Below, piece by piece: positions 1 through 1,838 of a stretch of DNA of 2,584 nt. The notes under the pieces were generated by a model. That model saw only the letters and a list, made by a program, of their open reading frames with translations. It had not been told where the DNA came from and ran no database searches. The stretch is from contig CH709154.1 of the NCBI GenBank assembly GCA_000004695.1, positions 1 to 2,584 on the forward strand, given 5' to 3'. Origin of the DNA: Dictyostelium discoideum (lineage: Eukaryota). The first letter of the stretch is position 1. Each line of letters begins with the position of its first letter. Made by a program: the position numbers and the translations under genes.

Positions 1-12
1 AGATAATTTTTT

Positions 13-32
13 AGAATGTTCTAGAACATTCG
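13..32 (+). promoter_or_regulatory. Heat-shock element (HSE)-like array: four contiguous alternating pentamers aGAAt-gTTCt-aGAAc-aTTCg; positions 14-31 (gaatgttctagaacattc) form a perfect 18-bp palindrome
   Basis: Read directly. GAA sits at 14-16, TTC at 19-21, GAA at 24-26 and TTC at 29-31, each separated by exactly 2 nt. That is the canonical HSF-trimer site nGAAnnTTCnnGAAnnTTCn. It lies about 110-130 bp upstream of the first ATG (144) of the + strand ORF. Further palindromic TTCGAA cores occur at 29-34, 47-52 and 67-72. Confidence 0.5.
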
Positions 33-143
33 AAGAATAAAAAATTTTCGAAAGAAAAGTAAAAATTTCGAACCGGCACAATGATGCGATCATTGAGCAA
101 GGTCGAAAAACATAAAAATTAAATAGAAACCTTTGATTTAAGA

Positions 144-596
144 ATGAAATCAATGGAAGATCAAATCAACAACCTTTCCTTAGCCTTTACAAGATTCATG
201 AAAGAACCAATGTTCTATTCTAATAAAAATTCACGTAGCCAACCTTCTCATGATAACTCTGACACTGAGAATGAACAAAGTGAAGATGAATCAAGTAACA
301 ATTTCGATGTTTCAACCGATTATCAATTATCCGATACCTTACTTGGTCAGTACAAACATATGGTAAACAATCAAGGTTTACTCGTAGAAGAAGAATGTAT
401 CCTCAAGAAAGATGAGATATCCGAATTGAATAAAGTATTCAACTTTCCATCTAACTTCCAAGTGAATGTCGCTCCATTTATTACACCTGAAGGTAATTCT
501 GTATCATCCAACTTCAAAAACAATGATACTGACTTGTTGATTGTCGAAAAGAGAATCAACGATAGCTTGAAACCTTTGATTCTCTTTTTTTTATAA
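144..596 (+). CDS. Hypothetical small acidic Ser/Asn/Asp/Glu-rich protein (150 aa), no recognisable domain; possibly heat-shock regulated
   Basis: It is the only long uninterrupted ORF in the window with an ATG start. There is an A at -3 (aagaATGa) and a second in-frame ATG at 154. Codon usage is less AT-extreme than the flanks, with many GAA/GAT/AAC/TTC/GTC codons. A low-complexity acidic tract (SDTENEQSEDESSNN) looks like a CK2-type phosphoacceptor cluster. TAA stop at 594-596 is followed by a T-rich stretch and AATAAA hexamers. The C-terminal 'PLILFFL' is encoded by the T-run just before the stop, so the true C-terminus or an unrecognised intron is uncertain. Confidence 0.45.
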   Translation: MKSMEDQINNLSLAFTRFMKEPMFYSNKNSRSQPSHDNSDTENEQSEDESSNNFDVSTDYQLSDTLLGQYKHMVNNQGLLVEEECILKKDEISELNKVFNFPSNFQVNVAPFITPEGNSVSSNFKNNDTDLLIVEKRINDSLKPLILFFL

Positions 597-622
597 ATTT
601 TTTGATATTTATTAACAATTAG

Positions 623-657
623 AATAAAAAATATATATAAAAAATAAATAAAATAAA
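623..657 (+). terminator. Cluster of AATAAA hexamers (putative polyadenylation signals) 27-60 nt downstream of the ORF stop codon
   Basis: AATAAA occurs at 623-628, 643-648, 647-652 and 652-657. The background is so A-rich that chance occurrence is likely, hence the low confidence. Confidence 0.3.
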
Positions 658-754
658 AGAATGATTTACATACTAAATTTTAATTCTACGATAAGTCTTA
701 ACAAATATTGTTTAATATTATATAAAATTTTTGTTTTAAATAATGCGTTTTATT

Positions 755-775
755 AAAAAAAAAAAAAAAAAAAAA
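755..775. repeat. Homopolymer A(21)
   Basis: Counted directly: an uninterrupted A run from 755 to 775. Confidence 0.95.
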
Positions 776-799
776 CATATGAAAAGTGAAAATTTTTTC

Positions 800-815
800 A
801 AAAAAAAAAAAAAAA
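800..815. repeat. Homopolymer A(16)
   Basis: Counted directly: A run 800-815, followed by T(7) at 817-823. Confidence 0.95.
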
Positions 816-949
816 CTTTTTTTCGAAACAACTCGGCTTATTCCCAAATAACTCCATCTTTTTCAAAATAACTTTATTTATTCAGAATTAATTCAATTAT
901 TCACTGATAGGTCCATTGTAGTATTTCATTTTAATTTTAAATCTTATAA

Positions 950-964
950 TTTTTTTTTTTTTTT
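950..964. repeat. Homopolymer T(15), immediately 3' (minus-strand sense) of the integrase remnant; a second T(8) lies at 970-977
   Basis: Counted directly. Confidence 0.95.
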
Positions 965-977
965 CATTATTTTTTTT

Positions 978-1838
978 CACTTGAAAAGGTGTAAACATAG
1001 AAGTAGAAGATATTGTATTATTGATTGAAAATTGAACCACTTTTAAGTACAATGTCCAGGAACTATTATGAATATTATTAATATGTCATATCAAGCTCTG
1101 GATTTGCAGAGGTTTGGCTTGTAATAAAGTTTTACGTAAAGCGTTTGCTAAGACTCTAACTTATATCTCTGCTTGACCGTCGCCTGATGATGATAGGGTA
1201 AGCATGTGTGATGTTTGACATTATTATTAATTAAGAACTTGGACCATGAGTTACTTGAGAATAACGGATCATTATCTGAAATAATTACGGATGGAAATCT
1301 AAATGTAAACATAACTTGATCTTGTAACAATGGAAAAATATCTTTTGAATTAGTAGATGATGGAATTGGTATGAGTACGACATATTTGGATAATCGGTCA
1401 ACTACAATTAATATTCTATTAAAGTTCAATTTGATTAATTGTACATTTGTTCAAACTTGAAAGGAAATCCATGCTAATTTCACTAAAACATCTTGATGGT
1501 GAAAGAGGTGATAGTAATCCAATTTGATGTTTCCTTGAATCGGAGGCACAAATACATATTTTATTATTACTACAATAATCTTTGATATCATCAATCACTC
1601 CTTTTCAAAAGAATTTTCTTTTAATTTAATCAATGGTTTTGAAACTACTTCAATGACCTGCTAGTGCTAAATCATGATGTATGGAAATTACTTGATTTAT
1701 TACAAAAGTCTCTAATGGTATTATTACAATAATATTTTCATTTTCTTTTAAGCATTGATCTAATGGATAAGTGTTTAATTGTTGATATTGGTTAGTAACT
1801 TTTTGAAGTTTGATAAATTTCCGCAAGAAAAAATTCAA
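978..1838 (-). pseudogene. Ty3/gypsy-type (Metaviridae-like) LTR-retrotransposon integrase remnant, 5'-truncated pol fragment. The N-terminal HHCC zinc-finger region, DDE catalytic core (rve) and C-terminal region are all recognisable; it is disrupted by 4 in-frame stops and 2 frameshifts
   Basis: Minus-strand conceptual translation, stitched by hand (fs marks a frameshift, / a block boundary): LNFFLRKFIKLQKVTNQYQQLNTYPLDQCLKENENIIVIIPLETFVINQVISIHHDLALAGH*SSFKTID*IKRKFF*KGVIDDIKDYCSNNKICICASDSRKHQIGLLSPLSPSRCFSEISMDFLSSLNKCTINQIE[fs]LNFNRILIVVDRLSKYVVLIPIPSSTNSKDIFPLLQDQVMFTFRFPSVIISDNDPLFSSNSWSKFLINNNVKHHTCLPYHHQATVKQRYKLES*QTLYVKLYYKPNLCKSRA*[fs]NNIHNSSWTLYLKVVQFSINNTISSTSMFTPFQV. This matches the conserved integrase series in order: HHD..AGH-x-G..KT, F(Y/F)W.GM..D(I/V)..Y, C..C, GLL.PLP.P..P...ISMDF, ILVVVDRFSK, (H)G.P..I(I/V)SD(R/N)D..F.S, YHPQ(T)..Q.ER.N.TL...LR.Y, NW...LP..EF.YN.....STG.SPFE. 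The C-terminal part parallels Ty3 IN (NIQNW..YLPQIEFVYNST....SPFEI versus NIHNSSWTLYLKVVQFSINNT....TPFQV). Stops sit at 1650-1652 (TGA), 1626-1628 (TAA), 1605-1607 (TGA, exactly at the conserved Trp of F-Y-W-P-G-M), 1148-1150 (TAG) and about 1090 (TGA). Frameshifts are near 1430-1440 and about 1085. ORFs 1650..1838 and 1148..1429 from the supplied track are two pieces of this. Confidence 0.8.

Follow-up and report, generated by a model that had tools for sequence, protein, structure and literature searches.

One end of the window (the whole 2,584-nt stretch of Dictyostelium discoideum DNA that was analysed) reads like a textbook heat-shock gene: a mismatch-free heat-shock element (HSE) and a TATA-like stretch lie upstream of an open reading frame annotated as a hypothetical protein. 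This arrangement raises the question of whether the HSE drives a stress-inducible host gene, as the initial annotation had proposed, or whether it belongs to a mobile element. Our analysis indicates, with high confidence, that window 1-585 derives from the 5' portion of DIRS-1, the most abundant retrotransposon of D. discoideum, in a degenerate copy, and that the HSE at 13-32 represents the heat-shock promoter/enhancer element of the DIRS-1 inverted terminal repeat (ITR). The outcome is mainly a correction, in that an apparent heat-shock gene is actually a DIRS-1 relic.

Heat-shock element and terminal repeat at the 5' end of the window

A sequence scan revealed four alternating nGAAn/nTTCn units at window 13-32 (AGAATGTTCTAGAACATTCG), in perfect phase and with zero mismatches, where at least three contiguous alternating units define an HSE. 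The core at window 14-31 (GAATGTTCTAGAACATTC) reads the same as its reverse complement and constitutes an exact 18-bp palindrome, which can be lengthened, with some mismatches, to about window 8-38 (31 nt, 87% self-complementary). The initial annotation had described four perfectly phased units with an exactly self-complementary core and had named the motif a canonical HSE, and it was right on each of these points. When compared with the Pelham box (CTnGAAnnTTCnAG), window 11-24 and window 21-34 each match at 9 of the 10 specified positions. The hexamer TTCGAA is found at window 29, 47 and 67, with a spacing of 18 and 20 bp, and at one unrelated site at 822. The first three had been counted as further palindromic cores, and their positions and spacing stand; however, in TTCGAA the TTC directly abuts the GAA, with the 2-nt spacer missing, and those at 47 and 67 therefore do not count as in-phase HSE units. 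Judged by its sequence, the HSE of the window copy is intact, and binding of HSF to it could still take place. Coordinates of the features are collected in Table 1.

Table 1. Features of the window and of related terminal repeats. Positions are those of the window unless another contig is named.
Feature	Position	Strand	Basis or remark
DIRS-1 left ITR/LTR fragment, positions ~69-188 of the ~314-bp repeat	1-120	+	alignment to L002 and other copies
Four-unit HSE, aGAAt gTTCt aGAAc aTTCg	13-32	.	equals ITR 81-100
AAAAATTTCGA motif, including the third TTCGAA core (67-72)	61-71	+	alignment A2
ITR/ORF1 junction with TATA-like ATAAAAATT	111-129	+	ambiguous origin, 19 nt
DIRS-1 ORF1 (putative GAG) fragment, about codons 22-172, both ends truncated	126-585	+	nucleotide and protein alignment
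150-codon ORF	144-596	+	internal ORF1 Met start (Met28 of P0001), stop in AT-rich flank
Ty3/gypsy-type integrase core (rve, E = 5e-11)	1148-1429	minus	Pfam
PIF/Harbinger-type DDE_Tnp_4 transposase gene (domain E = 1e-7)	~1900-2584, domain 2271-2513	minus	Pfam
Centre +1 variant of the HSE, AGAATGTTCTTAGAACATTCG	L008 2260-2401, 6910-6773, 9631-9767, 14650-14761		'Dictyostelium cf. discoideum' ITRs

The segment that carries the HSE is a piece of a repeat. Window 1-120 aligned at 92.5% identity to the left ITR of contig L002 (6617-6736, corresponding to ITR 69-188) and at 90-92% identity to inverted right-ITR copies of the same contig (10389-10269 and 11238-11116), and further copies of this segment were found in L006, L007 and L008. 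On L001, the contig that aligns to the window, the match to the repeat starts at 2452, which corresponds to ITR position 21 and lies 47 bp upstream of the window start; in the window copy, the outermost ~20 bp of the ITR have either been lost or diverged. Mismatches to the reference ITR are clustered, with 8 in window 73-120 and 1 in window 1-72. In window 79-95 (CAATGATGCGATCATTG), two perfectly inverted 7-bp arms flank a 3-nt spacer; they lie within the first of two ~50-bp tandem ITR sub-repeats, the second of which is absent from the window copy.

The reference contig, L002, contains a largely complete DIRS-1. Its left ITR (6549-6862, 314 bp) recurs in inverted orientation at 10455-10142 with 98.4% identity, consistent with the inverted terminal repeats of ~330 bp that characterize DIRS-1, a member of the DIRS order, whereas the window has only ITR 69-188. 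A second right-ITR copy of L002, at 11305-10989, is tandemly duplicated. The tandem duplication of the DIRS-1 3' end (9629-10456 and 10476-11306; 832 bp, 98% identity) takes in the complete right ITR as well as the internal complementary region, and results in an element with two right ends. The 88 bp at L002 10022-10109 match ITR 1-33 in reverse and ITR 1-29 in direct orientation, and the internal complementary region of DIRS-1 is given as 88 bp in PMC7192593; this region is present in L002 and absent from the window copy. The order of elements in L002 is HSE (6629-6648), TATAAATAG box (6822-6830), end of the ITR (6862) and ORF1 ATG (7001), with the HSE ~175 bp upstream of the ITR TATAAATAG box. 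Each of the three ITR copies of L002, left and right, has an HSE identical to that of the window copy.

In DIRS-1, ORF1, described as a putative GAG in PMC4482531 and PMC5633606, lies immediately downstream of the left repeat, and the window has the same order, with an ORF1 fragment that is truncated at both ends. DIRS-1 is further characterized by a reverse transcriptase/RNase H and a tyrosine recombinase in place of a DDE integrase. At the examined loci the ORF1 homologue is directly followed by a gene for RT and tyrosine recombinase. The domains PF00078 and PF00589 were detected in genes beside ORF1 homologues in L002, L004, L005 and L008, and neither was detected in the window copy; the gene neighbouring the ORF1 homologue in L003 additionally contains PF05869 (Dam-type methyltransferase).

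We equated the 20-mer with the published heat-shock promoter by its position in the ITR, by the titles of the papers and by the Pelham-box matches mentioned above. The heat-shock promoter of the DIRS-1 (Tdd-1) ITR is the subject of Zuker et al. 1984 (PMID 6326136) and Cappello et al. 1984 (PMID 6371492), and according to the literature it functions in yeast. Because the ITR heat-shock promoter has been known since 1984, the element itself holds no new biology. In the papers that were searched in full text, the 18-mer returned no match. A DIRS-1 terminal-repeat promoter had been mentioned in the initial annotation as an alternative to a host promoter, and this alternative is borne out by the ITR match of window 1-120 together with the ORF1 match.

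Probable deletion between the terminal repeat and ORF1

When compared with the fuller copy in L002, the window copy lacks ~327 bp (L002 6737-7063) between window 120, where BLAST homology ends, and window 126, where it restarts. The missing segment comprises the second ITR sub-repeat, a T-rich stretch, the TATAAATAG TATA box, the transcript start region and the 5' UTR, and it also takes the first ~22-27 codons of ORF1. At its other end the copy is cut off at ~585, after ORF1 codon ~172. The TATA-like stretch that had been noted at 112-120 is present, as ATAAAAATT. The junction aligns with gaps to ITR ATAAAAAGTATAAATAG at 15 of 17 bases, a placement that differs across the four gap regimes used, and the ATAAAAATT stretch may, by this alignment, be a remnant of the DIRS-1 TATA region.

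The HSE is located 112-131 bp upstream of the ATG in the window and ~370 bp upstream of the ORF1 ATG in L002. The shorter distance is due to the ~327-bp gap; the spacing of 110-130 bp, which had been taken as typical of a heat-shock promoter, is thus the product of a deletion. Through this loss the HSE now abuts a gag fragment that happens to keep an in-frame Met. Alternatively, the ITR piece and the ORF1 piece could derive from two nested DIRS-1 insertions. We favour a single element, as the two pieces show similar divergence from the reference (92.5% and 92.8%), although this does not amount to proof.

An exact 13-bp direct repeat, GAAACCTTTGATT, is present at window 126-138 and 569-581, at both edges of the ORF1 fragment. 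At the left copy the homology to intact ORF1 resumes, and the right copy lies a few bases before the homology ends. An intact copy reads GAATCCTTTGATT and GAAACCTTTGCTT at these sites, already a repeat at 11 of 13 positions, with each window copy one substitution away. The repeat may represent microhomology in the rearrangements, or a coincidence.

The losses around the junction bear on the activity of the copy. It is possible that the HSE survives in a copy that is transcriptionally inert, either through loss of the core promoter or through silencing in DIRS-rich heterochromatin; this reading accepts the same DIRS-1 identity as our preferred explanation and differs only on activity, and we consider the chances for and against it to be evenly balanced. 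In its favour, the ITR TATAAATAG box and the start region are missing or left as a doubtful remnant, and DIRS-1 clusters are described as heterochromatic and centromeric, and DIRS-1 as controlled by RNAi (PMC7192593 and PMC5633606). However, the HSE has stayed perfectly intact, window 1-72 differs from the reference ITR at a single position, an AT-rich junction can act as a surrogate TATA, and the control of DIRS-1 appears, in the review PMC5633606, to be post-transcriptional and not transcriptional. The window copy would be one in which the enhancer is kept and the native core promoter is lost. Residual stress-responsive transcription of this copy through the AT-rich junction is conceivable from the sequence, although we would lean slightly against it.

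The 150-codon open reading frame

The longest ORF of the window encodes 150 aa, the next longest 93 aa. Its product has a predicted pI of 4.5, with 24 D+E residues against 13 K+R, which confirms the acidic ORF described at the outset. A Pfam search gave no family for this product, and its identification needed a homology search. The search yielded 108 homologues, none of them outside Dictyostelium (species: discoideum, cf. discoideum, firmibasis, citrinum and dimigraforme), of which many belong to a single assembly; in several of the homologous gene calls the ORF is joined to a PF00589 (tyrosine recombinase) or PF00078 (reverse transcriptase) domain. Based on these multicopy Dictyostelium homologues and on the fusions, we identified the ORF as DIRS-1 ORF1 (gag-like).

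Nucleotide comparison of the ORF1 fragment gave 92.8% identity to L002 7064-7522 for window 126-584 and 91.7% to L007 10064-10522, with lower values for copies from D. firmibasis (72-76%) and from D. citrinum and D. dimigraforme (69-76%). In the protein alignment (A3) the ORF product covers residues ~28-172 of DIRS-1 ORF1/gag, with an identity of 84-90% to D. discoideum ORF1 products and 59-71% to full-length ORF1 of D. firmibasis and D. citrinum. The window ORF departs from the family consensus after ...LKPL, and full ORF1 proteins run 50 to more than 150 residues longer. At the nucleotide level the 3' DIRS-1 homology stops after TTCTC at about 585, and the last residues (..FFL) are not DIRS-1 sequence. 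The internal Met start and the stop in flanking AT-rich DNA make the ORF a two-sided truncation of ORF1.

These results can be set against the proposal that the HSE array drives, as its promoter, a stand-alone host gene at 144-596 that is inducible by stress and encodes a small, acidic, disordered protein. The proposal draws on the position of the HSE 112-131 bp upstream of the ATG of the longest ORF, on the TATA-like stretch and on the low pI, and a gene caller annotated exactly this ORF, with an identical product, on contig L001. However, the ORF is a truncated transposon ORF1 for which 108 multicopy homologues exist, the homology ends before its C-terminus and stop, and the spacing follows from the 327-bp gap. 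Within the collection searched, the exact 150-aa product occurs on one contig only (L001), in a neighbourhood that is a transposon graveyard. A stand-alone host gene would be single-copy, with its own promoter and syntenic orthologues, whereas here both the ORF and the upstream segment are multicopy. We regard a host gene as highly improbable. The ORF is thus no orphan gene, as had been stated, and its product is a transposon relic instead of a stress protein of the host; that the 150-aa fragment has a functional role for the host is very unlikely. The initial annotation had also considered that segment 1-140 might be a multicopy repeat unlinked to the ORF; window 1-120 is indeed multicopy, but the repeat and the ORF are physically part of the same element.

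Copy number and comparison between species

We surveyed copies in about 130 kb of fetched DIRS-rich loci, which contain numerous copies of the HSE-bearing ITR segment. Eight of the eleven D. discoideum ITR copies that cover the site contain the perfect HSE 20-mer. The remaining three carry substitutions in the HSE; two of these are among the most diverged copies (89-91% identity), and the third is 98% identical.

The cross-species alignment (A2) comprised 11 ITR copies from four Dictyostelium species. The conserved parts of the ITR were positions ~30-75, the TTTCGA core in AAAAATTTCGA, the TATAAATAG region and the inner end, while the HSE columns were not conserved across the four species. The TTTCGA core (window 66-71; reference T134-A139) is invariant in 11/11 aligned copies. 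AAAAATTTCGA is not an in-phase HSE unit, and the neighbouring HSE columns vary between species. This core may be a binding site for some factor in the DIRS-1 repeat.

At the place of the HSE, D. firmibasis ITRs read GAAnnTTCnnGAG, a three-unit match at 8/9. The D. citrinum ITR retains the outer GAA and TTC only, with a disrupted centre, and in the D. dimigraforme ITR the HSE segment is absent; neither has a match at 8/9 or better. The related promoters do not keep the array, which is degenerate or absent in the copies examined from these three species. In 'cf. discoideum' (L008), one of six ITR copies is perfect and four of six carry an extra T at the centre of the palindrome, which brings the two GAAnnTTC dimers out of phase.

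Since the perfect HSE is not conserved in three other species, conservation gives no support for a function beyond D. discoideum; its non-conservation is no argument against a function in D. discoideum itself. The comparison suggests that the perfect four-unit array is specific to D. discoideum sensu stricto, in a small sample whose copies are perhaps degenerate. This is the mildly new, comparative part of our results: the perfect HSE seems limited to D. discoideum sensu stricto, in contrast to other portions of the repeat, which several species share. According to PMC5633606, DIRS-1 accounts for about half of the centromere sequence and has expanded in this way in D. discoideum only. The restricted HSE, if true, could relate to this species-specific expansion at centromeres. 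That the mismatch-free HSE is a recent innovation of D. discoideum DIRS-1, whose strong stress enhancer could have aided the expansion of the element, appears to us unlikely but worth stating.

A second mismatch-free four-unit HSE-like run, AGAAACTTCCAGAAATTTCT, is located at L003 14606-14625, inside a gypsy-type pol gene of D. firmibasis. It is probably due to chance, given the amount of AT-rich sequence scanned.

The same comparison bears on whether the palindrome serves DNA transactions of the transposon, as a tyrosine recombinase site or as a hairpin for cDNA synthesis, and not HSF. A palindrome that is perfect over 18 bp and can be extended to about 31 nt would suit such a role, and tyrosine recombinases typically recognise inverted half-sites. 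However, the ITR tips and the TATA region are conserved in the four species and the palindrome is not, which is the opposite of the pattern of an essential site, and the sequence fits the HSE consensus without any mismatch. In addition, the recombination site proposed in PMC7192593 consists of the circle junction of the ITR tips and the internal complementary region, and not of ITR 81-100. The palindrome was rejected as a recombinase site on the conservation pattern and the literature, and a role in DNA transactions is, like a host gene, very hard to sustain.

To estimate the chance rate of the array we used 20,000 first-order Markov simulations of the window, among which runs of at least four units appeared in 0.15% and runs of at least three units in 6.8%. 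The HSE array exceeds what base composition would give, and the statement that four mismatch-free units are unlikely by chance is well founded. A chance palindrome without function, for which the base composition (about 27% GC, with many GAA/TTC-like words) and the three-unit runs speak, can be dismissed almost entirely in view of the rarity of four-unit runs, the identity of the element in most young ITR copies and the activity as a heat-shock promoter reported for the DIRS-1 repeat in the literature.

Remainder of the window and flanking sequence

The window is AT-rich throughout, with 12-36% GC in 200-bp windows. Two ORFs on the minus strand, 1419-1598 and 1650-1838, had no significant Pfam match; they may be broken continuations of the integrase relic (Table 1). 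The DDE_Tnp_4 copy of the window has a 2-bp deletion near 2277 that results in a frameshift. An intact 165-aa DDE_Tnp_4 ORF on L001 is 99% identical to AX4 DDB_G0267216 (P0109). With only 4 homologues found, we consider this element to be low-copy. In D. firmibasis, a gene at L009 17471-18909 contains both Chromo and DDE_Tnp_4 domains. Contig L001 also has gypsy-type and DIRS-type RT genes, and a second integrase/RT relic is located further along this contig (6205-7516). Scans of the window for tRNAs and Rfam families detected no tRNA and no Rfam family.

Window 586-1147 and 1840-1900 are AT-rich spacers with long A and T runs, in which GC falls to 11.5%; homopolymer runs are located at about 755-775, 800-815, 949-964 and 1843-1860. 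Comparison of the AT-rich spacer with the fetched DIRS-rich loci gave one short match only (window 924-982, 79%, L007).

Alignment of the window to L001 2499-5074 revealed 37 differing columns (22 substitutions plus indels), all of them at window position 800 or beyond. Window 1-799 shows 0 differences from L001, although the substitution rate of the downstream part predicts about 10 for it. Given that the window differs from L001, it must come from another strain, another assembly or a paralogous copy.

Proposed role of the element in DIRS-1

Taking the HSE as the heat-shock element of the DIRS-1 ITR, we propose the following course of events. On heat or other stress, trimeric HSF would bind the nGAAn array, and the transcript would start near the inner edge of the ITR, just downstream of the TATA box and about 215 bp from the HSE. 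In the left repeat the HSE would serve the 4.5-kb sense mRNA, and in the right repeat it would serve inward antisense transcripts, including the stress-induced 900-nt E1 RNA. Because the HSE is palindromic and the repeats are inverted, we infer that the same element activates inward transcription from both ends. Both ITRs of DIRS-1 are described as strong promoters in PMC4482531 and PMC3950715, and according to the latter the 900-nt antisense E1 RNA, which is attributed to the right ITR, is triggered by heat shock or other stress.

Comparison with known systems

The closest known system is DIRS-1 itself (also Cappello et al. 1985, PMID 2416457). The window copy agrees with it in ITR sequence (92-94%), in the position of the HSE, in ORF1/gag and in the genus, and differs from it by having no RT, no tyrosine recombinase, no internal complementary region and no right ITR.

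Canonical HSEs of the hsp70/hsp90 type share with the window four contiguous, alternating, mismatch-free nGAAn units. In contrast to hsp70/hsp90-type promoters, the HSE of the window is part of a transposon repeat and not of a chaperone gene, and compared with many hsp promoters it lies farther from the TATA box, at ~175 bp in the fuller DIRS-1 copies.

Among other mobile elements, ONSEN/ATCOPIA78 of Arabidopsis carries HSEs in its LTR, and copia and mdg1 of Drosophila are induced by heat. In these elements, as probably in DIRS-1, a site for a host stress factor in the terminal repeat couples transcription of the element to stress. DIRS-1 differs from them in belonging to the DIRS order, with a tyrosine recombinase and with inverted instead of direct repeats, and there is no sequence relationship between them. 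Furthermore, in contrast to ONSEN, copia and mdg1, DIRS-1 has one palindromic HSE for its convergent sense and antisense promoters.
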